Assembly (NCBI GenBank): GCA_021399395.1
Contig: JAAFKJ010000043.1
Location: forward strand, 30,886 to 94,885
DNA: 64,000 nt
Direction of reading: 5' to 3'
Source: Candidatus Heimdallarchaeota archaeon
GTDB taxonomy: Archaea > Asgardarchaeota > Heimdallarchaeia > Heimdallarchaeales > Heimdallarchaeaceae
The notes under the pieces are model-generated. The model was not told the origin of the DNA, searched no databases, and saw only the letters and a list, made by a program, of their open reading frames with translations. Position numbers and translations under genes: made by a program. Positions 156 through 38,649 of the stretch are shown here, one piece after another (the first letter of the stretch is position 1; each line of letters begins with the position of its first letter).

Positions 156-851
156 ATGAATGATGAAATTACTAAGGTTCTAGAATTATGTGCATCTCAA
201 GGAAGAACCGTACTTTCCTACGAGGAATCTAGAAATGTATTGTCTTTTGCTGGTTTTCCATTAAACAAGATGGCATTTGCGAAAAATCTGGAAGAATGCT
301 TAAACAAAGCTCACGAAATAGGTTACCCCATTGTTCTGAAGGTTGTTTCTGAAGATGTGTTACATAAATCTGATTCAGGTGGTGTCAAGATCAATATTGG
401 TTCAGATGAAGAATTGAAGAAAGCACACGAAGAAATGGTTGAGAGTGTCAAGAATTTCTATCCCTCAGCTAAAATTACTGGGTTTAGTATTGAAGAAATG
501 GTAGAAGGTGTAGAATTACTTATCGGAACCAATACAGATGAGCAATTTGGAAAAATGATTGCATTCGGTATTGGTGGGATTTTTGTTGAAGTTTACAAAG
601 ATGTATCATTCCGTCTGATTCCTGTAAACGAAGATGATATTTTAGAAATGATTGCTGAGATAAAAGGTAAAAAGATGTTAGATGGTTACCGAGGGCAACC
701 TAAAGTTGATCAATCTGAATTAATTTCATTTGTTTTAGGTATTTCTAATCTTATCGAAACTTATCCTCAAATAAAGGAAATGGATCTAAATCCGGTTGTA
801 GCAACTTTAGAGGGACTAAAGGCCATTGATGCGAGAATAATTCTTGAATAA
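156..851 (+). CDS. acdB: Acetate/acyl-CoA ligase (ADP-forming) beta subunit, ATP-grasp
   Basis: GYPIVLKVVS..VLHKSDSGGV, FGIGGIFVEVYKDVSFR, EMDLNP, DARI motifs. Confidence 0.9.
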   Translation: MNDEITKVLELCASQGRTVLSYEESRNVLSFAGFPLNKMAFAKNLEECLNKAHEIGYPIVLKVVSEDVLHKSDSGGVKINIGSDEELKKAHEEMVESVKNFYPSAKITGFSIEEMVEGVELLIGTNTDEQFGKMIAFGIGGIFVEVYKDVSFRLIPVNEDDILEMIAEIKGKKMLDGYRGQPKVDQSELISFVLGISNLIETYPQIKEMDLNPVVATLEGLKAIDARIILE

Positions 852-25033: not shown

Positions 25034-26059
25034 CTATGCTTGTACACTTGGAGCTGGAGTATGCTTTAATATTCTATCAATAATAATTTCAGAAGTTGTT
25101 CCATCAAATTCGTATTCAGGTTTAATAAGCACTCTATGTCGTAATACGTTCTTAGCAACCTTTTGAATATCTAATGGATTAACGTACTTTCTACCATCCA
25201 AAGCAGCTGTAGCTTTGGCAGCAATGGTCATCCACAAACTAGCTCGGGGACTAGCACCCATGTAGACTTCTTCGCTCTCTCTAGTGAGATTAACGATCCT
25301 AACAATATATTTAGAAAGATCTTGAGAAATACTAACTTCCTTCCTGACAACTTTTTGTAATTCTAAAACTTCGTCTCCTGTCATTACTGGGACGATGTCT
25401 TCTAATTTATCATAGGAATCATATTCGCCTGTAAAACGGTTAACTATCTCAACTTCGTTTGCTTCTTCAGGGTAGGTAACTAGAAGTTTGAAGGCAAAAC
25501 GATCGATTTGAGCTTCAGGTAAAGGATACGTACCTTCGGTTTCTATGGGGTTCTGCGTGGCAAATACGATGAATGGGGCTGGTAATTCATATGTTTTCTT
25601 TTCAACTGACACCTGTTTTTCCTGCATGCTCTCTAGCATTGCTGCTTGAGTTTTTGGAGGTGCTCTGTTAATTTCATCCGCTAGTAAAAGATTTGTAAAC
25701 ACTGGTCCTTGCTTGAAGTAAAAGTCTCCTGTTTCTGGTCTAAATGCCATGACTCCTGTTACATCAGAAGGCATGAGATCTGGTGTAAATTGAATCCTTT
25801 TGAAATCTGCAGAGATTGCTCTTGCCAAGGCACGTGCCATGAGTGTTTTTGCAATACCTGGTACTCCTTCAAGTAGAACATGACCATCAGCTAGAACTGC
25901 AGCTATCATTGATTCTATTACTTCTTCTTGGCCTACTATTACTTTGCTGATGCTTTGTTTAATCTGCTTAACTTTTTTAGAAATATCTTTGATGCCAACT
26001 TTGGTAGATTGTGTTTTTTTCTTTGAAACTTTTTTCTCCTTAGAACTCATTATTGACAC
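25034..26059 (-). CDS. moxR: MoxR family AAA+ ATPase
   Basis: GHVLLEGVPGIAKT, RIQFTPDLMPSD, DEINRAPPKTQ, ATQNPIE.EGTYPLPEAQ.DRF. Confidence 0.95.
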   Translation of the reverse strand: MSIMSSKEKKVSKKKTQSTKVGIKDISKKVKQIKQSISKVIVGQEEVIESMIAAVLADGHVLLEGVPGIAKTLMARALARAISADFKRIQFTPDLMPSDVTGVMAFRPETGDFYFKQGPVFTNLLLADEINRAPPKTQAAMLESMQEKQVSVEKKTYELPAPFIVFATQNPIETEGTYPLPEAQIDRFAFKLLVTYPEEANEVEIVNRFTGEYDSYDKLEDIVPVMTGDEVLELQKVVRKEVSISQDLSKYIVRIVNLTRESEEVYMGASPRASLWMTIAAKATAALDGRKYVNPLDIQKVAKNVLRHRVLIKPEYEFDGTTSEIIIDRILKHTPAPSVQA

Positions 26060-26145
26060 TCCTTAAGTAGAAAAGTCTAATTCCCTTATAAACGTATTTT
26101 ATTAAAAGAAATTAAAATTATCTGAAGAACAAAAAACTCTAGGAA

Positions 26146-26859
26146 TTATGTTTCTTCTTCTACAGCTTTCTGACTGGGTTCTGTAGCCACTTCTTCTTCC
26201 CACTCTTCATGAAAATCCCACTGTGAAAGCGATATGCTAAAAGAAGAATCTTCTTTCCCTGGACACTCGATTCTTATAGTGAGATGATCCTTAGAAATTT
26301 CTTCTACTTCTGGGTGTAAACAATTCTCTTCTAAAATATCCATAAGAGCTGCGACATATGTGTTTGAGATTTGGTTAATACTTTCCTCTTGGATTTTAAG
26401 ACCAACCTCTCCCAATTTATAGCAAGTTTTACGTCCTTCGCTGAACTTTTCAACTAAATTTGCTTGAACCATTCTATCTGCATGATGTCTTACAGTGTCA
26501 TGATGAATACCTATTTCTTTTGCAATTATTGTTTGATGAATACCTTCATTATTTACAATATAAGCAAAAATTTTCCTTGCAGTTAAATGTTTTAGAACCA
26601 CAAATGCTTTTTCAACATCTTCATCTCTTAATGTTCTTGAAAAATAGACTCTCTTTCCCCCAAATTTCGTAGTCTTGATTAAATTAGCTTCTTCAAGTTT
26701 CCTTAGATGCCAGTTTACAGTACCATGCGGTGCAGTTAAAGTACTTGATAATTCAAAAAAATATGCACCAGGGGTCTCACAAACAAGACGGTAAATCTCA
26801 CGGCGTAATGGATGGAGAAGCAAAGTGAGACGTTTTTCCTTTACTCTCCTTTGAACCAA
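26146..26859 (-). CDS. Double winged-helix transcriptional regulator
   Basis: HPLRREIY...PG, GTVNWHLRKL, second HTH (HDTVRHH). Confidence 0.8.
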   Translation of the reverse strand: MVQRRVKEKRLTLLLHPLRREIYRLVCETPGAYFFELSSTLTAPHGTVNWHLRKLEEANLIKTTKFGGKRVYFSRTLRDEDVEKAFVVLKHLTARKIFAYIVNNEGIHQTIIAKEIGIHHDTVRHHADRMVQANLVEKFSEGRKTCYKLGEVGLKIQEESINQISNTYVAALMDILEENCLHPEVEEISKDHLTIRIECPGKEDSSFSISLSQWDFHEEWEEEVATEPSQKAVEEET

Positions 26860-26874
26860 AAAAGGTTCACTCCT

Positions 26875-27303
26875 TTAAACTGTTAAAGTATCAACTTCGA
26901 CGCTTGATACTCCTTCGATTCGCTCAAGTTCATCCTTGATTTGATCAATACTAACTTCCTTAAGCTCATCAGAGTCAATATAACCTTCATACACACAAGC
27001 ACTTTGTGTGAAACACAAACCAGTACTGTACAGTGTTTTAATACCGAGTCTTATGAAAATAGAACCCATTTTACGAAGGAAATCAGGAGATAATTTTCCG
27101 ATATTGATATTGATTTTAGCTACTTCATTAGTGCTTGTAGGAATAATTCTAATGATTCTAGTATTTGGTGCAAGAATCAACACTGCAAAAGTTTTACCAT
27201 CTGGTTTGAGAGCTGATAGGAATTCTTCTGGTAGTTCAATTGGCTTTTCGGCCTCTAATTTCACCATCTTTGCGATCGTAACTGATTGTTTTTCGCTGCT
27301 CAT
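26875..27303 (-). CDS. Hypothetical protein with ACT-like C-terminal domain
   Basis: LYSTGLC...CVYEGY...L..IEGV..V pattern. Confidence 0.55.
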   Translation of the reverse strand: MSSEKQSVTIAKMVKLEAEKPIELPEEFLSALKPDGKTFAVLILAPNTRIIRIIPTSTNEVAKININIGKLSPDFLRKMGSIFIRLGIKTLYSTGLCFTQSACVYEGYIDSDELKEVSIDQIKDELERIEGVSSVEVDTLTV

Positions 27304-27541
27304 TTTCTTTTTTCTCCATCTGTAACTATTATTGATTACTTTATGTAATTACATTTATATAACTATTTTGCCTTTCTTAAATACTTTACGCTACTGCGGG
27401 GAATATTTAGCTATTTTTCTTTGTTGAATTAAGCTATTATTTAACTAAAGATTTACTTTAGATTTGAGCTAGTTCGAGAATTATTGCAATAAGTTTTAAT
27501 AACACTCGGGCACTCTTAACTTCATACTTGAGGAAGTAATA

Positions 27542-29101
27542 ATGGGCGAATTAACTGCGAATAAAATTGACGATGAAGAGGAAGATCTCTACAAGATTCC
27601 TCATCCTAAACGATCTCTAATCGGTATTTTTATTTCAACATTCTTTCTAAGAGTAGCTTTTGGTAGCACAACTGTTCTTATGCCTATTTACATCTTTCAA
27701 CATCTGGAAGGTTTGGATGGATGGATAGGACATCTTAGTATAGTTATTGTAGAGATAACCTATGCAATCGCAGTAATTATAAGTTCTGGATATTTTGGTT
27801 TTAGATCTGATACTTCAAACTCAAAAAGATGGATACTGATTGGAACAGCTGCGGGAGGAATGATATTAGCTGGATATGGAATTTGTGCCTTAAACTGGGA
27901 TGGATGGATTGGCATCACTCCTTTGGTTAATGGTTTACTTATTTTTGGGATGAGTGTTTATCATTTCTTACATGGTCTTGCGGGTTCATGTAAAGTAAAC
28001 GCATCTTATGGGTACATCTCAAGATTTTCCGTTTATGAAAACAGAGCTACTCGTATAGGATTTTATAATGCGTTTGTAACAGGTGGGAGAGCTGTTGGAG
28101 TAATACTTGCTGGTGTTTTGTATGATCGGATAGTAGGAGTTACAGAAACAAGTGAAACAAGTTGGCATCCAACGAATCCTAATCGTTTAATCTATCTTTA
28201 TCTGATATTTGGTTTCGCAATCTTAATTTCGGCAGTCGTTGTATATTTCATGCTAGACAAAACTAAGTCTGTTGTAAAAGAAGAGAAATACAGTATAAAG
28301 AAAGAATTATTGACCTCTTGGAGATTAATTAAGGATAAAGGCAGAAGGGGAATTATTTTGCCACTTTTAGGAACAGCTTCAATTGTAGGTATTCTAAATA
28401 ATTGGGGATTTCTTATTCTTTCTTTAGAATCAACTCCTGGTGCTGCTAGCTGGACAACAGTTCTCTTCACAGTAGCTATGGGAGCACCTATGGCCTTGTG
28501 GGGTTGGTTAGCCGATAAAATAGGCCGAAAGAAGACATTATGGATAGGTGTTGTAGGTTTACTCATTATGTCTGTGATGATTGGAATTGCTTTCTTTGGA
28601 AATTACTTGACAGGAGGAAATCCATGGTATGATCCCAATTCACAATTTGACTCTGGTGGTTTTATACAACCAGAAAATCTTTGGTTAACAATCATTCTCG
28701 TTATTTCTTTAATTATGGGTTCAGCATATTTTCCTGCAATTAGTGGAAGATTAGGTGATAGTAGTTCAATTGGAGTTACTGAAGAATCTGTAGATGAGAC
28801 ACAAGAACTAGAAAGAACTGCAGAATTTCATGGTGCAACAATGAGTATTCAACAAACAATCCTCTCAATAAGCGAAATTATAGGTATCGTTGTAGGGGGA
28901 GTTGCGTTAATAATTGTTTATGCGATTTCAAAAACAGCAACAAACTTTGCATATAATATGATTGGGATGATTGTTCCAATACTTTTACTGCTCATCTTTA
29001 CAACTATCGTATCCTTCTTGTGGCCAGCTGAAGATGATTTCATCAAAACTAGTAAAGTAAGAAGAAAAGATCAGAAAGAAAGTAGGAAATATAAGCTATA
29101 G
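27542..29101 (+). CDS. MFS transporter
   Basis: About 12 TM; GWLADKIGRKK motif A. Confidence 0.85.
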   Translation: MGELTANKIDDEEEDLYKIPHPKRSLIGIFISTFFLRVAFGSTTVLMPIYIFQHLEGLDGWIGHLSIVIVEITYAIAVIISSGYFGFRSDTSNSKRWILIGTAAGGMILAGYGICALNWDGWIGITPLVNGLLIFGMSVYHFLHGLAGSCKVNASYGYISRFSVYENRATRIGFYNAFVTGGRAVGVILAGVLYDRIVGVTETSETSWHPTNPNRLIYLYLIFGFAILISAVVVYFMLDKTKSVVKEEKYSIKKELLTSWRLIKDKGRRGIILPLLGTASIVGILNNWGFLILSLESTPGAASWTTVLFTVAMGAPMALWGWLADKIGRKKTLWIGVVGLLIMSVMIGIAFFGNYLTGGNPWYDPNSQFDSGGFIQPENLWLTIILVISLIMGSAYFPAISGRLGDSSSIGVTEESVDETQELERTAEFHGATMSIQQTILSISEIIGIVVGGVALIIVYAISKTATNFAYNMIGMIVPILLLLIFTTIVSFLWPAEDDFIKTSKVRRKDQKESRKYKL

Positions 29102-29207
29102 ATCAGAAATTTTCCTAATAAAATAAGAGCAAATTCAAGAGGACAAACCCCCATAAAAAATGCTCTTACCCACAGTTTTTTAACCTAGTATTTCTGGCAA
29201 TCTTTCA

Positions 29208-30086
29208 ATGAAAGACAATTGGCTGTTTCTAAATCAGATGTCATTTAATACTGATTTGATAGATTCCAACACAACTGTAATTGTGGGCTTTTCAGGTTAC
29301 GGTTCAGTTGGTACAACTGTCCTGAATCATATCATTGAGAGATTAGATGTAGAATCCATTGGTTTTTGGGGAACACTTAGCTGGTTCCACAAAGGGGTTC
29401 TAGAAACACCAATAACAATCTATAGACTTGATGTAAAATCTAAAGATGATAAGGAAAACTTTGTATTGGTCACTTCTAGGTTGCCAATACCCGTGGTGGG
29501 GTATAATGCTCTACCAGATGCTTTCTGGAAATGGCTTTCACAAGAAATTCTCTCGTGGAAAGCTAAGCGTTATATCGTTATAGGTGGGTTGAGAGAGGAT
29601 GTTCGAAATTCTTCTGATGATTTATGGACAACTTTGCTACCAACTAAAAGATATACCGAAATTTATGGAACTCAAAGAACCTTCAAAGATGATTTAACAA
29701 TTAAAGGACCTATAAGCTTCCTCCTAACAGAAGGAACAGCATATAATCTTCCCGTACTTGGTGTTCTTTCTTATTGTAACACATACGATGTAGATTTAGA
29801 TGCAGCTTCGATGGCTTTGAAAGACTTAGAAAAACAACTAGAGTTAGATTTAAACTCAAAAGAAATTGAGGAGTTTGATTTCTCATTTTTGGAAAATCAA
29901 GTTGAACTTTTCCAAGATGAAACTGATTTTGAGGAAGAATTTGACTCAGAGTATGAAGAAGAATTTGACGAAGAATTCAAAAGCTTTGATGCAGAAGAGG
30001 ATAGAGAAAAGAAATTCTCTGTTGATGAAAATTCTTCCTTTCACTTAGATCGAACACATAAAGATGATTTGAATAAATATAGATAA
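29208..30086 (+). CDS. PAC2 family (proteasome assembly chaperone-like) protein with acidic tail
   Basis: IVGFSGYGSVG...HI, IVIGGL, I.GP, D.DAA. Confidence 0.75.
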   Translation: MKDNWLFLNQMSFNTDLIDSNTTVIVGFSGYGSVGTTVLNHIIERLDVESIGFWGTLSWFHKGVLETPITIYRLDVKSKDDKENFVLVTSRLPIPVVGYNALPDAFWKWLSQEILSWKAKRYIVIGGLREDVRNSSDDLWTTLLPTKRYTEIYGTQRTFKDDLTIKGPISFLLTEGTAYNLPVLGVLSYCNTYDVDLDAASMALKDLEKQLELDLNSKEIEEFDFSFLENQVELFQDETDFEEEFDSEYEEEFDEEFKSFDAEEDREKKFSVDENSSFHLDRTHKDDLNKYR

Positions 30087-31001
30087 TTACGAGATTATAT
30101 CCTTGTAATTCTTTATTTCTTCTAAAGTTATTGCATTGACGGGGCAAACATTGATGCATATTCCACAAGCTTTACAATAAGTTTTGATGACTCTGACAGA
30201 ATCTCCTTCTTTATGGATTGTTCCTTCTGGACAGTGAAAAAAGCATTGCAAACATTGAATACACTTATCCTGATCAATGTGTGCCTTTTCATTACTCCAA
30301 GCCCCAGTTATTCTAGAAACGGCGGCCCCAGGACCTATTATCTGTCCAGATTCTAGTTTCATTTTTGGAATAATGGTCCCAATTGGTAATTCATCAACAG
30401 TTGGTAACCATGTTCGAATTTTAGTGTTATTTCCTCCTCCCTGAGTTTTTCCAAAAACTGTTTCATCATATGCTATTCTTGCTGCTTCAACATTCATTTT
30501 TGCCATTCGATTACCCAAACGTGTTCCAAAAACAGACATGATCCCCTTCTCTAAATCCTCAAAAGTGATAAATTCTGAACTTCTAATCAGAGCTCCTAGC
30601 ATAGCGCTATTTACAACAGGTTGTACTAAAAATTCTTTTGCGATTTTCGTAGCATCAACAGTTGCTACTTGTGTTGGACTAGACAGTTTGATTTGTTCTG
30701 GTTTTTTTGGTGAGTTCAAAACTCCAATCCCTTCTGGCTTTAAACCTTGAACCACATCCACTAATTCAAGGAGAGAATCATCTAAAACAACAATTATGTC
30801 TGGTTCATAAATTTGTGTTCTCTTATAGATCTTCTTATCATCTATGCGTGCAAAAGCTAGAACCAATGCTCCTCTTCTCTCGGCTCCAAATGAAGGTATT
30901 GCAATTGCATGTTTTCCTGCATAAAAAACAGCTTTTGTTAGTGCTCTAGATGCTAAAACGGAACCTGTCCCACCTCTACCATGGAATCGGATTTCTAACA
31001 T
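30087..31001 (-). CDS. 2-oxoacid:ferredoxin oxidoreductase gamma-delta fusion
   Basis: EIRFHGRGG, FGAERRGA, N.AMLGA; C-terminal CIQCLQC..CP and CKACGIC..VCP. Confidence 0.9.
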   Translation of the reverse strand: MLEIRFHGRGGTGSVLASRALTKAVFYAGKHAIAIPSFGAERRGALVLAFARIDDKKIYKRTQIYEPDIIVVLDDSLLELVDVVQGLKPEGIGVLNSPKKPEQIKLSSPTQVATVDATKIAKEFLVQPVVNSAMLGALIRSSEFITFEDLEKGIMSVFGTRLGNRMAKMNVEAARIAYDETVFGKTQGGGNNTKIRTWLPTVDELPIGTIIPKMKLESGQIIGPGAAVSRITGAWSNEKAHIDQDKCIQCLQCFFHCPEGTIHKEGDSVRVIKTYCKACGICINVCPVNAITLEEIKNYKDIIS

Positions 31002-31056
31002 CTAGTATCACTATAGTTCATGACCTCTGGTACATTATAAAAGTGTTGGAAGAACA

Positions 31057-31620
31057 TTACTCGGTCTTCTTAATTGACTCAATATCTGTCTCTGTTAACC
31101 ATCTATTAAATTCAGTCGCTAAAGAAACTTCTTTATTTCTTCTCGGTTTCCTGAGTGTTCTTATTTTAGTTTCTAAGGTTAATTTTTCTTGAAATAAAGG
31201 TATAATTTTACTCATATCAATAGCATATAAATCGAAAAGAAATGCAATAGGTTTGAAATATACTTGTAAGAATTTTTCAAATTCATCGAAGTAAATCATG
31301 AGTTCTTTATGAGTCTCTCGTGAAACAACAAGATTGACAATGGTAACAGTTTTGCGCTTTAATCTAAAATCTTTAGCATCTAGATTCTTAAGATTCAAAG
31401 CAAAAGCGAAAAGAAAAAGATCATCATCGATTTTAGTAGAAGCTAAACCTTTGATATCTTGGTTTTGCATCATTCCCATCAAAGTAGGATATGTTGTAAG
31501 AACGATTTCGAGTTTCATATCCTCAATATCTGATGCAAAGATTTCAAAACCATTATCCGAAAAGTAAACAATAGCATATCCTTCGATTTTTTGTTTTTCA
31601 GTATCTAATAGAGTAGTCAA
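31057..31620 (-). CDS. Hypothetical protein, possible longin/uDENN-like fold
   Basis: Beta-beta-alpha-beta-beta-beta-alpha pattern (YAIVYFSDNG...FAFAL...AKDFR). Confidence 0.45.
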   Translation of the reverse strand: MTTLLDTEKQKIEGYAIVYFSDNGFEIFASDIEDMKLEIVLTTYPTLMGMMQNQDIKGLASTKIDDDLFLFAFALNLKNLDAKDFRLKRKTVTIVNLVVSRETHKELMIYFDEFEKFLQVYFKPIAFLFDLYAIDMSKIIPLFQEKLTLETKIRTLRKPRRNKEVSLATEFNRWLTETDIESIKKTE

Positions 31621-31718
31621 TCTGCTTCAATGATTCTTCCTCAGTTTATTATAAAAACCCCAATTTGGTTTGTTCTTTTCGGCAAGTTAATTATAGGAGC
31701 GTGGCATAAATTAAAACA

Positions 31719-32438
31719 ATGGAAAAAAAACTTCTCAAACGAATGGAGAATTTCAAGAATACTCCAGATCGCTTAAAATTCGAATTATTAAGAGAATTGT
31801 CCGAATTACCAGAAGAAGAACATATTACTAATTTTCTTCTCAATGTAGTTGAAAATGAGAAATATGATAGAATTCGAATAAATGCTATTCTTAATCTGAA
31901 AAAATATGAAAGTGATTTGATAGTTGAAAAACTCAAAATAATCTTCTCATTTGAGCGTGATAAAAGTGTGAGACTTGTAATTGTTGAAACACTTGGAGAA
32001 AGAGACTCAGATGAAATTGAAGACTTTTTCCAACAAGTTGCTATTAAAGATCTTAATGATATTGTACGTGCAACAGCTATTAGAAAACTCCATGAAAGGG
32101 AAAATATAGATCAAACCGTAATGCACGACTTACTATTAGATGTTATTCAGAATGATTCTTCTGTTTTTCCAAAACAAATTGCTCTAAGTGCTCTTCCATG
32201 TTACGCAACCTCAACCACTTATGACAAACTGAGAAATGTCTTCTTCAGAGAAGAAATGCTTCAAATGAAGAAACTTCTTTTTAAAACATTAGAAGAGATA
32301 TCTACAAAATTTGAGTTGGATTTGGACGTAAAAGAACCAGGAGACCCTATATTTGAAGACACTAAGAAAGCAAGAAGAAAAAGAAGAAAAGAACGTAAGA
32401 AGAAAAAATTGGATAAAGACGATTATCTTTATTTTTAA
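31719..32438 (+). CDS. HEAT-repeat protein
   Basis: IRINAI..L, VRL.IVE.LG, VRATAI..L repeats; basic tail. Confidence 0.75.
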   Translation: MEKKLLKRMENFKNTPDRLKFELLRELSELPEEEHITNFLLNVVENEKYDRIRINAILNLKKYESDLIVEKLKIIFSFERDKSVRLVIVETLGERDSDEIEDFFQQVAIKDLNDIVRATAIRKLHERENIDQTVMHDLLLDVIQNDSSVFPKQIALSALPCYATSTTYDKLRNVFFREEMLQMKKLLFKTLEEISTKFELDLDVKEPGDPIFEDTKKARRKRRKERKKKKLDKDDYLYF

Positions 32439-32459
32439 TTATGAATCTGGTTTCTGAGC

Positions 32460-32600
32460 TACACACGTTATGAAACTTGGTTAAACTTGCCAGAGGCTTT
32501 TTAACCGTCGTCTAAGGTTGTCCCCTCACGTGTGTTGAGGGGAAGAGATCGTAAGGAAGAGGAGTACCCTTGAGGGAAGCGATGTTTAAAGCAGCATTCT
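32460..32600 (-). ncRNA. Putative right-end RNA (reRNA/omega RNA) scaffold of the tnpB element
   Basis: Stems TCCCCTCA/TGAGGGGA (32521-32543) and GGTTAAA/TTTAACC (32479-32506) at the tnpB 3' end and element end; 5' boundary approximate. Confidence 0.5.
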
Positions 32601-34452
32601 CGTGAGAGTTGACCTGTTGACCACATTTTTTACAAGGGGCAACATCATGATGACCTTTAGCACGAGCAATCGTCCCTCCACAACCATAATGTCTGGTGCT
32701 GGTATGATAGGGGGGAACAGCTTCTAACTCTACATCATAGCTTAACTCTAGGGAAGCTAACCAGACTGCTTTCTTGTAAATGTAAAGTTTATCAGGCATG
32801 TTATAGATGGCTTTAGCTAGCGCTCCTTTGGTACCGGTAGGGTCAGCGGTCAACTCCTCAATCTTCAGAGTCTGACACTGTTTCTTCACCATAACTGCAG
32901 CTAAGAAGTGAGGAAGACGACGAGTGATCTCACGGAGTAAACGGCTGCGACGCTGATAGACTCGGTTGAGCTCACCCTTGAGCTTACACGAACCTCGAAT
33001 ATCGTAAACCTTGCGTTTGTTAAAGAACCCCTTATCTAATTCCTTGAGGACTTTATCTGTCAACTTCTGGTAACGTTTAGCTAACTTTAGCAAATCTGGA
33101 GGAAGTGGAACTGGAGTGTTAAATATCACCATATGCTGTCCCAAACGGTTGATATCTACACCTAACACTTTCTTCCTCCCTCTAGGAATGTAAGGGAGAT
33201 AACTACGTAGGAGGGTAGAAGAGCGGAAAGAGGCATGGGATCCTTCTAGCACCACGTCTAAACTGGGTCTGAAACTAGGAGCTCTACCACTACTTACTTG
33301 GAACACTTTGAGTTCTGCACCATTCCGAATATACTCTAACACTTTTGGAGGAAACAGCACTTGAGCAGAAAGCTTTTTCTTCCCTTTTAGAGGGAACCCT
33401 AAAGTGGTGGTTCCTTGCTTCTTGACTTGTCTGGTCAATTCACTTGCATTCCCTTCACGGGTAATAACATACTCTTTTTTCATTAATAGTTTGATTGATA
33501 ATCTTCCTTGCTTTTTTCTTTTGAATGGGAGAGGAACAAGCTTGGCTACAGATAACCCTTGTAGTAACTGAGGGACACTCTGAATGATCTGGTCAAAGAG
33601 TGTGAAAACAACTATCTGCCTTACAGCAGAAAAGAGGTTTCGATTAGGGTTGCCTATTATTGTTGCTAGTTCCTTAGCTAATTTCTTGAGACTTTTCCAA
33701 CGAGATTTCTGATAACTGTTAATCCACGAAGTCACAAACGGTATGACTATCTGTTGCTCTTGTTTGAGGAGACGGAGTTTGTTCAGAAACGCTTGCTGGT
33801 TCTTTGAGAGAGAAGATAACTGGGCAAAGGTGTTGGTTTGGTAAGTTAGAGCGTCATCGATTCCTTGTAAGACCTCCTGTTGAGTGTAAGAGGGTAAGGC
33901 TCCATTAAACACCAGATTGTTGGAGAAATAATGGTTCCTCTTTTTCTTTCTGCTATAAGAATCGAGTTGCATTCTTGAACTTGTCAACAGATTGATAATG
34001 TATCTTCGTTTTAGTTTCCAACGTTTCCCTAAACTACTTTCAGTGTAAGGGGAACGACCAAAGATTATCCACTCTACTTGTTGTTGAGGGTTCTTTTGCA
34101 GAAAGTTGAGTATGTTTTGCACTTTCTGTTCTTTATCCACTTTCCCTTTTACAGCTATCTGGAGCCAGTGGTAAGCACTTTCAGCGATGTTAGGGTTCTT
34201 ACCTACAGCTTTCCCTACTTGGCGCACAAAGAAACGTTCTTTGGGATTGGCGCGATAGATCTCAATTGCCTTTTTGACCACATCTTGAGGGAGGAGGTGG
34301 TATTGCCGTTCTTCTAACGTTCTGATTCGTTGATTAATTTCTTCTCGTTGGACTGATGAGTCACACTTTAGCGCTACCTGATAACTTCTCATCACTGTAT
34401 CTAAGATAAGCGGGTGAGAGGTTTGAGAGGTGCTAACTGTTTGTGAGCTCAT
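32512..34452 (-). CDS. tnpB: Large TnpB-like RuvC protein (646 aa)
   Basis: RuvC-I VLGVDINR, RuvC-II LKIEEL, VPPYHTS, Zn finger HYGC/CKKC, HENAALNI. Confidence 0.82.
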   Translation of the reverse strand: MSSQTVSTSQTSHPLILDTVMRSYQVALKCDSSVQREEINQRIRTLEERQYHLLPQDVVKKAIEIYRANPKERFFVRQVGKAVGKNPNIAESAYHWLQIAVKGKVDKEQKVQNILNFLQKNPQQQVEWIIFGRSPYTESSLGKRWKLKRRYIINLLTSSRMQLDSYSRKKKRNHYFSNNLVFNGALPSYTQQEVLQGIDDALTYQTNTFAQLSSLSKNQQAFLNKLRLLKQEQQIVIPFVTSWINSYQKSRWKSLKKLAKELATIIGNPNRNLFSAVRQIVVFTLFDQIIQSVPQLLQGLSVAKLVPLPFKRKKQGRLSIKLLMKKEYVITREGNASELTRQVKKQGTTTLGFPLKGKKKLSAQVLFPPKVLEYIRNGAELKVFQVSSGRAPSFRPSLDVVLEGSHASFRSSTLLRSYLPYIPRGRKKVLGVDINRLGQHMVIFNTPVPLPPDLLKLAKRYQKLTDKVLKELDKGFFNKRKVYDIRGSCKLKGELNRVYQRRSRLLREITRRLPHFLAAVMVKKQCQTLKIEELTADPTGTKGALAKAIYNMPDKLYIYKKAVWLASLELSYDVELEAVPPYHTSTRHYGCGGTIARAKGHHDVAPCKKCGQQVNSHENAALNIASLKGTPLPYDLFPSTHVRGQP

Positions 34453-34501
34453 CTTCTCTTCAACATATAATGAACAGATTAGTATTTAAGCTCGAGAAAA
34501 C

Positions 34502-34769
34502 TCAACATTTTGGTGGTGCTTTTCCTCTCCGTTGTCTATGTAACCTTCCTGCGTTTTGTTCCACTCACTCTAGCGTATCCCAACACCACTTGGTTGTGTT
34601 GAAGATTGTTTTCCTCCTTCTCTTCTCCTATTATTTGTGCGAGTTTATATCTTCTATGTCCTCCCCTTGTTCTCCCGGAAGGGAGGAGTTTCTCTTCTCT
34701 TTCCCACCTTCTCAGTGTGCTAGCAGACACTCCTTGCATGGATGCTGCTATGCCAATTCTTACTAACAT
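34502..34769 (-). pseudogene. tnpA: IS607 serine transposase TnpA with internal deletion
   Basis: MerR-like HTH (GVSASTLRRWE...GGHRRY) and GYARVS, then a jump to an out-of-frame C-terminal fragment AGRLHRQRRGK. Confidence 0.85.
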
Positions 34770-34836
34770 ACCAGTTTTTTTGTTGTTCCTTTAGATAATG
34801 TTTGTGCTTTTTGGATAAGATTGAGTAAGTTTTCAC

Positions 34837-35478
34837 TCAGCAGTTGCTTACAGTCCAAATGTATCCTCTTCTATCCTTTGGTCGGACCAACCTTACTTCT
34901 TTTGCAATAGAGTATAGTTCCCATCCTTTTAAAGCAGTTTTCAACTCAGTTGTTGTAATAAATCTTAACGGAGGATCTGTTTTGAAATGAGGTTTTACAT
35001 TACCTCCATAAAGAAGAAAACCTCCGGGTTTTACAGCTTCTATCAATTCTAACAATTTTGGTAAAGCTCCCTCATACAGATATTGCAGACATTGTATTGC
35101 TGAGATAACGTCATAACTTTCCGGTTGAAGTTCAAAAGTATCCATATCGGTCAGAAGAATGTTCATCTTGTCGGTTACTCCCAAAGCTTCAGCTCTTTTT
35201 TCTGTGATTTCTATAGCTGAAGGGAGAATATCAACTGCGTCAACCTCAAATCCTAATTGAGCTAAGAAACAAGCATACCTGCCATCGCCAGTGCCGAATT
35301 CAAGAGCTTTTTTCCCCTCATGATCTTTCCCTTGAGTAAATAAGTAATATTCTTGTAAAGCATAATGGACATATTGTTGCGGCAACTCGTCAAGTTTGCC
35401 TTCCATCTGTTTTTTGTAAACATTGTCCCACCCGTCCATATATTTGTCAGGAACTAATGACACGTATTTTTTCGACAT
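34837..35478 (-). CDS. Class I SAM methyltransferase (TehB-like), C-terminus altered by IS insertion
   Basis: LEFGTGDGR, VKPGG; native end AQKPDS* lies at 32439-32459. Confidence 0.85.
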   Translation of the reverse strand: MSKKYVSLVPDKYMDGWDNVYKKQMEGKLDELPQQYVHYALQEYYLFTQGKDHEGKKALEFGTGDGRYACFLAQLGFEVDAVDILPSAIEITEKRAEALGVTDKMNILLTDMDTFELQPESYDVISAIQCLQYLYEGALPKLLELIEAVKPGGFLLYGGNVKPHFKTDPPLRFITTTELKTALKGWELYSIAKEVRLVRPKDRRGYIWTVSNC

Positions 35479-35611
35479 AAGATTAGAGAGTTTAGAACGC
35501 TTATAATCCTCTTGTATTATGCATGGAATGGGAGCAAGTAGTGGTTACTTAGATTTTTAAGCAAAAAAATTTAATTACATGTACAACCTTAAGGGAGAAT
35601 AGGGAGATAAA

Positions 35612-37300
35612 ATGAACTATAAAAGAATCCTGATTGCAAGTGGTTTAATATTAATAGTACTTAATTTAACACCTTCTTTTTCTGAAGCAAAAGAAAGTTC
35701 TCAAACCGATCCAAGCATAATTGTTAACCAAGACGTGGATTTCTATTTCAATGTTACAACTATGCGTACAGATATTTCAATTCGAAGTGATGGTTCTATA
35801 GATATTTATTATCTAATTGAATTCTTTAATCATCCAAATTCTTCATATAGCGAGCCTATATGGGTTTTTGATATCGGTTTTCCAAACGTCTATTATGATC
35901 TCGATTCTGTAAGAGCAAAAATAAATGGTACAGAAGTTACGGAAATTAACAAAAGTCCTTATGTAGATATAGGCGTAGAAGTGATTTTCAATTCATTTGC
36001 TATTCCTTTGGGATACACTGGTGTTCTAGAAGTGTGGTGTCATAATCCAATAATGGTTTTTGAAGATGAAAATGAAGGCTTCGGATCCACTGTCTTTCTA
36101 CAAACATGGTTTTATTGGGAATTTGTTTACAGTCAAACCTTTAGAACAGTTCGGTTTTATTTCCCTGATGGCTTAGAAGACATAACTGTGGTGCAACCAC
36201 GAGTTTATGAATACGGTGATTTTACAACATTTGTCCACCCCACAAATAGTTCTCTATCCTATGTTCAGTTTTATGACATAGGGTATCCTGATGATGGTTA
36301 CTGGGTTGGCGTCGCCTTTCCTGAGGATTATGCAAGAATTTTCAGTTCATTTTGGCGACTAAAAGTTTTCGGAAATATTCTCCAATATCCCATGTTTGCT
36401 GTTGTAATTTCTGTATTGATTCTTGGTTCCATTATTTTAATATTAAATAAAAGAAGAAATAAAAGAAAATACCTTCCTCCATCAATCAGTTCTTTAGGCG
36501 GCGGAGTAAGAGAAAAACTAGACCCCTCTGACGTAGCGATTTTGCTTGAAAGACCCTTAACGCAAGTTGCATCTCTGATGCTTTTTGAAATGATGGAGAA
36601 AGGGTATATCTCTGTGAAGAAAACTGAACCGGCCTTAAGGTTACAAGTAGTAATAGATTCCGAGAAAAAAGCACAGTTACTGAAACACGAAAAGGCAATT
36701 ATTCGAGGTATTGAAAAACGCAATAAAGAAGATATAAAGTGGGAAAAAGGCGCATCACATGGTGCTATACCTCCAGAACCAGTTCATCAAGATGAGATAA
36801 AAATAGCTATAGTTCATCAGATTAAATCGGTTACTAAGAAAATGAAAGGATTTTCAGCTAGAAAAACACGAGATTATTATGAAGCAATTATTGAAAGAGC
36901 TTGGCAAGAAATGAGTAAGTCAAACCCAGAACTGAAAAATGCGTTCTTATGGATAATGGTTGATGAAAAATATGAACAACAACTCGAAAAACAAGGAGCG
37001 GATTATTACTATCCTCGATGGTATGTAAGCAGTTATTATATCTACTTGGGACGTTCTTATACACCATCAAGTAGAAGTCATTTTGTGAGGATTCCTAAGG
37101 GATCACGTATCCCTCATTCAAGACCTGCAAATACGTTTATGTCCGGTCTAATTCACAAACCTCAATCTCTCCATAATTCAATTAGAAATGTAACCAGACC
37201 TCCATCAACATCAAGTGGAGGAAGATCTGGTGGTGGTAGCGGTGGTGGATGTGCATGCGCTTGTGCTTGTGCATGTGCTTGTGCAGGAGGCGGAAGATGA
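35612..37300 (+). CDS. DUF2207-like single-pass membrane protein with C-terminal Gly-(Cys-Ala)6-Gly tail
   Basis: Signal peptide, DISIRSDGSIDI, TM followed by NKRRNKRK, tail SGGGSGGGCACACACACACAGGGR. Confidence 0.8.
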   Translation: MNYKRILIASGLILIVLNLTPSFSEAKESSQTDPSIIVNQDVDFYFNVTTMRTDISIRSDGSIDIYYLIEFFNHPNSSYSEPIWVFDIGFPNVYYDLDSVRAKINGTEVTEINKSPYVDIGVEVIFNSFAIPLGYTGVLEVWCHNPIMVFEDENEGFGSTVFLQTWFYWEFVYSQTFRTVRFYFPDGLEDITVVQPRVYEYGDFTTFVHPTNSSLSYVQFYDIGYPDDGYWVGVAFPEDYARIFSSFWRLKVFGNILQYPMFAVVISVLILGSIILILNKRRNKRKYLPPSISSLGGGVREKLDPSDVAILLERPLTQVASLMLFEMMEKGYISVKKTEPALRLQVVIDSEKKAQLLKHEKAIIRGIEKRNKEDIKWEKGASHGAIPPEPVHQDEIKIAIVHQIKSVTKKMKGFSARKTRDYYEAIIERAWQEMSKSNPELKNAFLWIMVDEKYEQQLEKQGADYYYPRWYVSSYYIYLGRSYTPSSRSHFVRIPKGSRIPHSRPANTFMSGLIHKPQSLHNSIRNVTRPPSTSSGGRSGGGSGGGCACACACACACAGGGR

Positions 37301-38640
37301 TGGATTTAACAGACATACTAAGCAGATTTGGAATAACAACAAAATCCAAAATGTCTCATCAAAGAAATGTAGATACAACAGCGAGAATGCATTTGAGAAA
37401 AGAAAAGAAAGGAAAGAGTCTCTTGTTAGTAAATGCTACAATGATTTTCCACCTCAATAAGACAGCAACTGATTTTGCATCCCGAATAATCGATGGAAAA
37501 GATGATGCTGAAATCATCCGTGAGATGAAAAGAAAGTATCGTGTCTCAGAAGAACAACTGAAATCGGATTTGGATGATCTCAGAAACTCCATTACCAGGT
37601 TAATGGATGAACCCGATATCGATCCGGTTCAGCATTTGTCTCAAGATGTCAGTCCTCTTTTAGAAGCACCCTTCTCAGCTCCATTGCGAATGGATCTTGC
37701 TCTTACTTATAGGTGTAACAACAAATGCTCTAAGTGTTATGTTGAAAATTATAGGGATGTAAAGGAACTATCAACTATTGAATGGAAACAGGTTTTAGAT
37801 ACTCTTTGGGCGAGAGGGATTCCCCATGTTACTTTTACTGGTGGAGAACCTACAATGAGACCTGATCTTCCAGAATTAGTCAAATATGCGGAGGACCTAG
37901 GAATCATAACTGGTCTGATATCCAACGGTAGAAAACTAAAAAACAAGAAATTAGTAAACTCCCTCATAGAAGCAGGAATTGATCATTTTCAAATCACACT
38001 AGAAAGTCACGATGCTTCAGTTCACGACTCTTTAAGTGGAGAACGAGGTGCTTGGAAAGAAACAGTTGAAGGTATTAAGAACATCGTACCTACTCCAGTT
38101 TATATTATGACTAATACTACTCTAACTCCTTACAATGTAAAGGACATAGAAAAAACAGTCGAATTTTTACATTCTATAGGCATTGAACAATTTGCAGCAA
38201 ATAGTATAATAAAATCTGGTGGAGGAAAACAGGAGGATATGGCACTCACTATAGAGGAACTAGATGCGGCTATAACGAAGATTATGAATAAAGCAACTGA
38301 ACTAGGGATGAAATTCATCTGGTATAGCCCAACAAGATATTGTGAATTTAATCCAATTGAGAAAGGATTGGGGATGAAACAATGCTCTGCTGCTCATATT
38401 GCCATGGCTATTGAACCAGATGGTGAAGTGATACCATGTCAAAGCTATTTCGAAACTCTAGGTAATATCCTTACAACAAGATGGAATAAAATCTGGAATC
38501 ATAAAACTGCAAGGAAATTAAGGAATATGAAATATCTTCAAGAGGAATGCCTTGACTGCCCCGAAAGAGAAATTTGTGGTGGGGGATGTCCACTAAACTA
38601 TGCCGCTCCAATGAATCTATGCAAAACTTCATTTTCTTAA
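37297..38640 (+). CDS. Radical SAM/SPASM peptide-modifying enzyme with N-terminal PqqD/RRE domain
   Basis: LNKTA...Y.V...L..DL (PqqD-like), CNNKCSKC, FTGGEP, SPASM C...IEPDGEVIPC...CLDC...CGGGC; ATGA overlap with the upstream gene. Confidence 0.9.
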   Translation: MMDLTDILSRFGITTKSKMSHQRNVDTTARMHLRKEKKGKSLLLVNATMIFHLNKTATDFASRIIDGKDDAEIIREMKRKYRVSEEQLKSDLDDLRNSITRLMDEPDIDPVQHLSQDVSPLLEAPFSAPLRMDLALTYRCNNKCSKCYVENYRDVKELSTIEWKQVLDTLWARGIPHVTFTGGEPTMRPDLPELVKYAEDLGIITGLISNGRKLKNKKLVNSLIEAGIDHFQITLESHDASVHDSLSGERGAWKETVEGIKNIVPTPVYIMTNTTLTPYNVKDIEKTVEFLHSIGIEQFAANSIIKSGGGKQEDMALTIEELDAAITKIMNKATELGMKFIWYSPTRYCEFNPIEKGLGMKQCSAAHIAMAIEPDGEVIPCQSYFETLGNILTTRWNKIWNHKTARKLRNMKYLQEECLDCPEREICGGGCPLNYAAPMNLCKTSFS

Positions 38641-38649
38641 TTTTTCCTG

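Follow-up and report, generated by a model that had tools for sequence, protein, structure and literature searches.

A histidine-type TnpB with an enlarged REC lobe, conserved across an Asgard-centred clade and carried by an IS607-type element of a Heimdallarchaeon

Altered catalytic sites are already on record among the TnpB proteins of transposons. Altae-Tran et al. (2023, PNAS, PMC10691335) distinguish six TnpB branches with an altered RuvC-III motif. In RIIIr-4, the largest such branch, the catalytic Asp is replaced by His; the branch is described without a C4 zinc finger and includes archaeal TnpBs linked to MazE or ribbon-helix-helix (RHH) proteins. The same authors deduce from its conservation that the His clade has retained activity, and they point to other RNase H-fold enzymes that tolerate altered catalytic sets (PMC10691335). 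Among insertion sequences of the IS607 type, the CboIStron element uses one motif as both the target of its TnpA and the target-adjacent motif (TAM) of its TnpB (TGGG, core GG), with a related motif at its right end (10.1101/2023.11.20.567912). Fanzors and pro-Fanzors, the latter mainly cyanobacterial, carry a DPG signature (D-hydrophobic-G) at RuvC-I and a C-terminally shifted RuvC-II Glu (10.1101/2023.08.09.552727). Here we describe a gene in a 64,000-nucleotide (nt) stretch of a Candidatus Heimdallarchaeota genome (contig JAAFKJ010000043.1, positions 30,886 to 94,885; hereafter the window), which is part of an IS607-type element and encodes a TnpB-like protein of 646 amino acids (aa) with His at the RuvC-III Asp position. 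The Asp-to-His change itself is already catalogued (PMC10691335), and what the window gene adds is a Heimdall-group IS607 member; the literature that we searched contains no description of this Heimdall TnpB family.

The motifs of the RuvC domain are found at residues 431-435 (GVDIN), 530-534 (KIEEL) and 615-624 (NSHENAALNI). Three alignments place His617 on the RuvC-III Asp. A profile of the family compared with PDB sequences pairs 'kcgkkvNtHanaakNia' with 'KCGYKVNADYNAARNIA' of CnCas12f1 (8hr5, E 4.5e-8), and the NCBIfam guided_TnpB alignment (residues 426-626) gives the same register. In an hhalign comparison with ten canonical TnpBs from the same genome, VNSHENAALNI is set against LNADCNAAGNI and LGVDIN against LAIDLG, so that D433 falls on their invariant D191; this pairing is sensible residue by residue, but it is weak overall (probability 3.5%, E 0.012) and its score is by itself no proof of homology. 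The zinc finger is of the H-C-C-C type (HxxC...CxxC), with HYGCGG from residue 588 and CKKCG from 607 (ligand pairs 588-591 and 607-610). Profile libraries recognize the 646-aa protein only in part. PF07282, the zinc-finger TNB domain, is the sole Pfam family (residues 572-624; 28.3 bits, cut-off 26.3), guided_TnpB (NF040570) covers residues 426-626 only, at 35.7 bits against the cut-off of 100 set for a whole protein, and IS607_TnpB scores 11.4 bits (cut-off 350). With its RuvC-I Asp, its RuvC-II Glu and a WED-REC-RuvC fold bearing a zinc-finger TNB insertion, the protein nevertheless has the hallmarks of the TnpB superfamily; it departs from the canonical members in that the RuvC-III Asp (D-x-N-A-A) is replaced by His617 throughout its family (96/96). 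A preliminary description of this DNA had already noted the 646-aa frame, the two acids, the His in the third motif and the HxxC...CxxC finger, all of which are borne out by the motif positions and the three alignments. Its remark that the protein is oversized is likewise correct, since the RuvC-I Asp lies at residue 433 as opposed to 191 in the co-resident TnpBs of 399-461 aa. The region of the open reading frame (ORF) has a G+C content of 40%, versus 32-38% across the rest of the window.

The catalytic residues are conserved far beyond this copy. A word-indexed search returned 128 homologues, nearly all of 620-650 aa, and every named match came from Heimdallarchaeota. In the family alignment of 96 full-length homologues, with the window protein as first row, D433, E532, H617, H588, C591 and C607 are invariant, as is N435, and the window copy retains all of the invariant residues. 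Searching 1.84 billion representatives with the profile of this alignment recovered only 265 proteins at E <= 1e-3, and distant columns were counted in the 150 best of these plus the window protein, aligned to the profile. There, E or D occupies the RuvC-II column in 121 of 122 representatives; the first ligand of the finger (588) is His in 108 and Cys in 16 of 124, with the other three Cys kept. The ligand set of the His-type family is therefore not a strict C4, and a zinc finger is probably retained. The preliminary description had proposed to ask whether the His is conserved among homologues and whether other copies share the extra length. The His is present in 96/96 close and 115/121 distant sequences and is no private mutation, and the additional ~240 residues occur family-wide, so that on both points its central claim survives. 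It had also considered a shifted Glu as a catalytic substitute. The residue that follows His617 varies (F, S, T, A, D, E, I, K and others), so Glu618 of the window copy is no conserved replacement and there is no adjacent substitute acid.

Selection on the gene was gauged against six relatives. The ratio of nonsynonymous to synonymous substitution rates (dN/dS) is 0.093-0.175 overall and 0.059-0.222 per domain, with dS of ~0.9-1.1, and by this measure the window gene is under purifying selection. We further compiled 81 loci, namely 79 from public genomes (among them a sister copy from the window's own genome, L003), the window copy and a second sister copy, L002. The tnpB gene is intact in 55 of the 60 loci that contain it whole. 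Among the 57 close-subfamily loci with enough upstream sequence, tnpA is uninterrupted in 9, interrupted in 9, a remnant in 14 and absent from 25. Because tnpB is intact in 55/60 loci and tnpA uninterrupted in 9/57, tnpB appears to outlive tnpA, as in other TnpB-bearing elements. The family is multi-copy in metagenome-assembled genomes (MAGs). Matches to its profile at E <= 1e-10 were found in 47 of 301 sampled genomes of the phylum, a sample in which many genomes are incomplete: in all 22 of the window's genus, in 26/28 of its family (the window's own genome excluded) and in 7/11 of a sister family, with sparse and partial matches elsewhere.

The AlphaFold (AF2) model of the whole protein, with a predicted local distance difference test score (pLDDT) of 85.9 and a predicted template modelling score (pTM) of 0.75, runs from a strand at residues 19-29 through an all-helical part (33-305) and a beta domain (320-405) to the RuvC domain, which starts at 429 and carries a disordered lid-like loop (537-551) and the zinc-finger insertion. 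Structure comparison (VIA) matched it to AsCas12f (8dzj; Z score 13.9, 366 residues aligned, root-mean-square deviation 6.3), the ISFba1 IS607 TnpB (8iaz; Z 13.0, 338 residues) and the ISDra2 TnpB (8h1j; Z 12.7, 340 residues). Foldseek E values went down to 2.4e-9 (AsCas12f), with the ISFba1 and ISDra2 TnpBs at ranks 12 and 17. Since these structures span the model from residue 18-21 to ~630 and yet align over only 338-366 residues, the surplus sits where TnpB and Cas12f carry their small REC domain. What the preliminary description took for a long N-terminal add-on is, in the model, an enlarged REC lobe of ~270 residues inserted between the first WED strand (19-29) and the remainder of the WED domain (320-405). 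Folded alone, the lobe gives a pLDDT of 89.4, and its dN/dS of 0.085-0.131 points to purifying selection like that on the other parts of the protein. A fold search with the lobe alone found nothing above noise (best Z 7.4; none of 48,161 chains reaches Z 8). The two helix-turn-helix (HTH)-like stretches formerly read into this part were not recovered: Pfam has no HTH family there at E <= 1, the winged-helix and homeodomain matches of the lobe reach only Z 4.5-4.8, within the noise, and ESM Atlas scores of 0.92 with 116-128 shared features are at chance level.

The window element is an IS607 copy that has been stripped of its serine-recombinase gene by a 326-nt deletion and a frameshift and has kept both ends and an intact tnpB. 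Besides the window copy, the genome carries two sister copies of the gene at 77% identity, and both of these encode a full TnpA (196 and 199 aa) directly upstream of tnpB. In the DNA alignment of the three copies, the window tnpA lacks 326 columns relative to L003 and L002, and its frame is shifted too. The 77-aa ORF that is left covers residues 1 to ~73 of TnpA and matches MerR (PF00376; 48.4 bits, cut-off 28.2) as well as positions 3-69 of the 187 in the NCBIfam transpos_IS607 profile (38.6 bits, cut-off 110). These matches, together with the full TnpA of the sister copies, confirm the IS607 association that had been proposed at the outset.

Similarity among the three copies starts at ACTGTAAGCAACTGCTGA (34854) and stops at ...CAAGTTTCATAACGTGTGT (32461). 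The motif AC[TC]GT...CAAC.G.TGA recurs in 12 true left ends. Left end (ACTGTAAGCAAC...) and right end (...CATAACGTGTGT) are not inverted copies of each other, and the element thus has no terminal inverted repeats. Independent confirmation of the right-end boundary comes from contigs of other public runs, in which the right end is shared and divergence sets in precisely at 32460/32461; in run X2 the depth at the right end is 288 versus 17, as expected for a repeat. The sole joint seen (34672-34817, one contig, depth 2.4) is not an excision. A genome of the same genus, G001, has the orthologous site empty, reading ...ATCTGG GTAGT AGCCCAGAAGCC..., where the window reads ...ATTTGG, then the element, then AGCTCAGAAACC...; this comparison reveals no target-site duplication. 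Because the G001 site is empty and the original end continues there, the insertion must have replaced the last codons of a methyltransferase gene. The orthologues in G001 and in a further genome, G017, end in ...IWVVAQKPEKKN and ...VWVVAQKSE before the stop, and the insertion turned the end ...VVAQKPEKKN into ...TVSNC, which is supplied by element segment 34837-34854. The original end (AQKP...) has been pushed past the right end, to 32441-32460, where a guide template would lie. Between the methyltransferase and HEAT-repeat orthologues of G017, the corresponding intergenic site has no insertion sequence and is occupied by ~940 nt of unrelated sequence, in which an ORF encodes a small protein that looks secreted or membrane-bound.

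The 86 nt of the right end are conserved as nucleotides even though the copies end their reading frame at three different positions, in different frames. Forty-seven copies share ...AAGTTTCATAACGTGYGT, and in all 47 the flanks are unrelated immediately after GTG[CT]GT. This sharp boundary between right end and flank, combined with conservation that is independent of frame, fits a guide-RNA scaffold. RNAalifold predicts two hairpins plus a long-range pairing to the N-A-A codons; 97.2% of cells pair in the predicted structure, as against 25-49% when the partners are slid, and compensatory change affects 6 pairs versus 1.6 +/- 0.8 in shuffles, with 0 of 500 shuffles as high. A search of Rfam, RAGATH-18 included, against 32200-35100 found no related family at E <= 10; the six listed matches are unrelated (E 0.088-6.5). 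Left ends begin with AC[TC]GT and right ends finish with TG[CT]GT. By analogy with CboIStron, GT would be the crossover core and ACYGT a candidate target or TAM motif. The coordinates of all features are collected in Table 1.

Table 1. Features of the His-type TnpB element and its surroundings (window coordinates).
Feature	Position	Strand	Evidence
IS607-type element, non-autonomous copy	32461-34854	-	left end 34854, right end 32461; crossover uncertain by 2-5 nt
Left end (ACTGTAAGCAACTGCTGAGTGAAAACTTACTCAATCTTATCC)	34813-34854	-	three-copy alignment; left-end motif
tnpA remnant: MerR-type HTH and start of serine-recombinase domain, then frameshift and stop	34536-34769	-	77-aa ORF; deletion junction near 34552/34553
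tnpB-like gene, His-type RuvC-III, 646 aa	32512-34452	-	ATG start; no stop in 646 codons
Enlarged all-helical REC lobe, residues 33-305, two helical sub-domains and disordered linker 171-190	33538-34356	-	AF2 models
WED beta domain, residues 320-405; first strand 19-29	33238-33495	-	model secondary structure; Cas12f/TnpB alignments begin at residue 18-21
RuvC domain with inserted zinc-finger TNB, residues 429-640; disordered lid-like loop 537-551	32533-33168	-	Pfam, NCBIfam, PDB profile, model
D433 codon (RuvC-I)	33154-33156	-	invariant 96/96; D in 104/104 representatives covering the column
E532 codon (RuvC-II)	32857-32859	-	invariant 96/96; 107 E, 14 D, 1 H of 122 representatives
H617 codon (RuvC-III Asp position)	32602-32604	-	invariant 96/96; 115 H, 5 Q, 1 D of 121 representatives
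Right-end block of 86 nt, candidate 3' part of guide-RNA (omegaRNA/reRNA) scaffold and TnpA site	32461-32546	-	nucleotide-level conservation
Predicted hairpin 1 (UCCCCUCA / UGAGGGGA), overlaps last codons (FPSTHVRG)	32521-32543	-	RNAalifold helix 4: 8 pairs, 97.6% of cells paired, 5 pairs invariant
Predicted hairpin 2 (AAAC..GGUUA..UAACC..GUUU), non-coding tail	32473-32513	-	RNAalifold helices 5-7: 5/6 compensatory pairs
Predicted guide-encoding flank, first 20 nt past right end	32441-32460	-	inferred from TnpB paradigm; matches original methyltransferase 3' end (G001 empty site)
Host methyltransferase gene, last codons (TVSNC) and stop from the element's left end	34837-35478	-	orthologues in G001 and G017

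We propose, as a reading that we think likely though by no means secure, that the window gene encodes an RNA-guided homing nuclease that has a D-E-H site and is stranded yet under selection; its RNA, its target motif and its cleavage of DNA are all inferred. The 3' end of the tnpB transcript and the 86-nt right end would fold into the scaffold of a guide RNA, and read-through into the flank (AGCTCAGAAACC...) would supply the guide itself. The ribonucleoprotein might then recognize the empty donor joint, through a short motif by the left end (the candidate ACYGT, with its GT core) followed by a match to the guide. Cutting of this empty joint by the D-E-H RuvC site could lead to recombination with a sister copy, thereby restoring the element. 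In this site, His617 would stand in for the third carboxylate, either as a metal ligand or as a general base. The window copy would be mobile only with TnpA provided in trans by the two full copies in the genome.

Several observations weigh against this proposal. A triad with only two carboxylates is unusual for the two-metal chemistry of RuvC, and no fourth invariant acid emerges from the 150 best of 265 profile matches plus the window protein, the nearest being D603 (D in 103/121) and D554 (88/126). The conserved site could serve RNA processing only. The predicted RNA varies so little among copies that its covariation is modest, and any scaffold would have its 5' half within coding sequence. 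The candidate ACYGT is not present in the two orthologous empty sites, which read GTAGT and GTGGT, and the left flanks show no conserved TAM-like motif, the 5 nt before the left end being variable in 12 copies. A joint across the element, as a sign of excision polymorphism, was seen in none of the contigs of four DNA runs from two studies, and the copies are old by their divergence (dS ~1; 77% identity within the genome), which leaves recent mobility of the window copy unsupported. The literature searched contains no bench test of any His-type TnpB, and in the available text of the published study activity of the His clade is deduced solely from conservation (PMC10691335).

We nevertheless favour an active site over a dead one because its residues are held across the clade (D433 in 104/104, E or D in 121/122, H in 115/121). 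The preliminary description had envisaged a distinct Asgard TnpB clade with either altered catalysis or binding only. Of this, the distinct, Asgard-centred lineage stands, while a RuvC-dead protein that only binds has become less likely, since a dead site would be expected to let D433 and E532 drift and both are fixed over the whole clade. A variant of that idea would keep the site in use without any cutting of target DNA: the D-E-H centre might process its own transcript into guide RNA, or cut only RNA or single strands, and the transposon would gain from target binding, by blocking or marking the empty site or by steering TnpA. Some Cas12 types keep RuvC for the processing of CRISPR RNA without cleaving their target, and His stands in place of a metal-binding carboxylate throughout the clade. 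The RuvC site of TnpB also processes its own mRNA into omegaRNA (PMC10278001). This is the chief alternative to our proposal, but on balance we regard such a binder as rather unlikely, given that the family acts as a proliferating transposon passenger, with several copies per MAG, miniature derivatives and a tnpB that outlives tnpA. In the IS605 and IS607 elements studied, this passenger pattern is explained by cleavage-driven homing (10.1101/2023.11.20.567912), and the tolerance of RNase H-fold enzymes for altered catalytic sets (PMC10691335) points the same way.

Two further explanations deserve much less credence. In the first, the protein would be a domesticated host regulator of the TldR type, an immobilized and nuclease-dead TnpB that represses a host gene via a fixed guide. 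The dead tnpA of the window copy would suit it, as would a distant subfamily that is without tnpA in 17/17 loci and stands beside tRNA-Asn or tRNA-Cys genes in 11. Its probability is nonetheless very low, for the window copy has recognizable transposon ends and an orthologous empty site, all 47 close copies have different flanks and hence different guides, the protein retains D433, E532 and an untruncated C-terminus, and the insertion damaged the end of the neighbouring methyltransferase gene rather than pairing with it. That the gene is a decaying relic, its frame open by chance and its protein functionless, is scarcely credible in view of the low dN/dS, the 646 codons without a stop and the retention of every invariant family residue, even if the element is non-autonomous, the copies are old (dS ~1) and tnpB is broken in 5/60 complete loci.

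Relatives of the window element take several forms. The genome contains a 357-nt miniature element (locus L106, positions 314-670, minus strand of contig C18; also locus L107, positions 1-292, contig C152) with a start resembling the left end (ACCGTAGTCCACCGATGG...), a non-coding interior of ~270 nt, the 86-nt right end of the window element and no genes. Sequence matching this interior is present in 12/25 genomes of the genus (up to 30 matches in G008, 15 in G005), and the right-end motif follows the interior in 10 of 11 loci inspected. The miniature element may be a trans-mobilized carrier of extra guide RNAs. The distant subfamily, which retains the His at 37-43% identity and whose right-end conservation runs on to ...TTGCTAA, is located ~100 nt downstream of tRNA-Asn(GTT) in 4 loci. 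In 7 others, drawn from different MAGs that include a Thorarchaeote, it lies 100-150 nt upstream of a tRNA-Cys(GCA) gene on the opposite strand. This tRNA-linked placement may reflect site-specific homing or a fixed, possibly exapted gene. In eight giant relatives of 1200-1784 aa, of which the named ones come from Odin, Thor, Hodarchaeales and Loki MAGs, the C-terminus is formed by the His-type RuvC/TNB part, and some have proline-rich tails; two of them give sub-threshold MazE/AbrB matches (20.0 and 22.7 bits, cut-off 24.7). The window's genome also encodes at least 14 canonical TnpBs above the NCBIfam cut-off, on ten contigs among others, so that D-type and H-type TnpBs coexist in one genome. 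The ten that we extracted (399-461 aa, 138-176 bits with guided_TnpB) have N-A-D-x-N-A-A at RuvC-III; their invariant Glu stands in 'ExYTS' and not at the usual RuvC-II place, and one Cys alone occupies the site of the first CxxC. A (CA)n-encoding repeat elsewhere in the window (37245-37285) is unrelated to the element.

It is tempting to go further, though we do so tentatively and would not be surprised to be wrong. The D-E-H site might be a working centre that differs from that of D-E-D TnpBs in metal preference, nicking, or choice of strand or substrate, and, combined with a REC lobe of Cas12 size, it might represent an independent, Asgard-centred route from a compact TnpB to a large RNA-guided enzyme without a CRISPR step. 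Miniature elements would then provide guides in trans, and the same clade would also have yielded the tRNA-linked solo genes and the 1200-1800-aa fusions of Odin, Thor, Hod and Loki archaea.

The activity of His-type TnpBs, which make up an entire clade, has so far been deduced from conservation. If the D-E-H site cuts DNA, the definition of a competent RuvC site will have to be widened, and Asgard archaea would be a source of natural mid-sized RNA-guided nucleases. If it only binds, the family would constitute a mobile, non-domesticated, binding-only TnpB, and a new account would be needed of how the transposon benefits. The window copy is well suited to testing: it combines an intact gene with two defined ends, a known guide flank and an available orthologous empty site. 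We attach no special weight to it for the origin of eukaryotes or the ancestry of Fanzor.

Among described systems, RIIIr-4 resembles the window family in a conserved RuvC-III Asp-to-His change across a large clade and in an altered C4 finger, here H-C-C-C (PMC10691335). Its archaeal members are associated with MazE/RHH, and the giant Asgard relatives give weak MazE matches. The likeness is one of description and not of tree placement: RIIIr-4 is described without a C4 finger, whereas the window family keeps a finger-like H/C-C-C-C set, and the RIIIr-4 description in the available text mentions neither a 646-aa size nor an enlarged REC lobe nor a Heimdall IS607 setting. Ser-6 and RIIIr-6, also named archaeal there (PMC10691335), remain alternative placements. 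Fanzor2 and pro-Fanzors share the IS607 context and the general TnpB fold (ApmFz2, 9b0l, Z 10.6, 335 residues aligned). In contrast to Fanzors, the window family is archaeal, has D-I-N with the invariant N435 and no DPG at RuvC-I, and keeps its invariant E532 at the usual place in K-I-E-E-L, its 'PYHTS' strand being without Glu. ApmFanzor2 ranks 25th structurally, behind Cas12f and the ISFba1 and ISDra2 TnpBs (Z 12.7-13.9), and with both Fanzor signatures absent, the relevance to Fanzor origins suggested by the preliminary description is not upheld. TldRs have in common with the family their descent from TnpB and an altered RuvC-III; as described, they are nuclease-dead and host-associated, whereas D and E are invariant here, the C-terminus is complete, and the gene belongs to a multi-copy transposon with variable flanks.

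The closest likenesses are to IS607 elements and to Cas12f. Elements of the former kind (ISFba1, 8iaz; CboIStron, 10.1101/2023.11.20.567912; ISXfa1, 10.1101/2023.08.09.552727) likewise encode a MerR-HTH serine-recombinase TnpA upstream of tnpB and have asymmetric ends, no target duplication, a conserved right end abutting a variable flank, and related short motifs at the left-end boundary and at the right-end terminus. The window protein differs from their TnpBs by ~240 additional residues and by the His at RuvC-III; neither RAGATH-18 nor a related Rfam family matches the RNA region at E <= 10, and the candidate core dinucleotide of the element is GT rather than GG. No CRISPR-like family of spaced repeats was found in 26000-41000, in line with the earlier remark that no CRISPR array is adjacent. 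Unlike Cas12f, the window gene is transposon-borne and has His at RuvC-III, and only 346-366 of its 646 residues align. Cas12f (AsCas12f, 8dzj/8j3r; CnCas12f1, 8hr5) still provides the best matches in both fold and sequence (Z 13.1-13.9; E 4.5e-8), with the same WED-REC-RuvC-TNB order.

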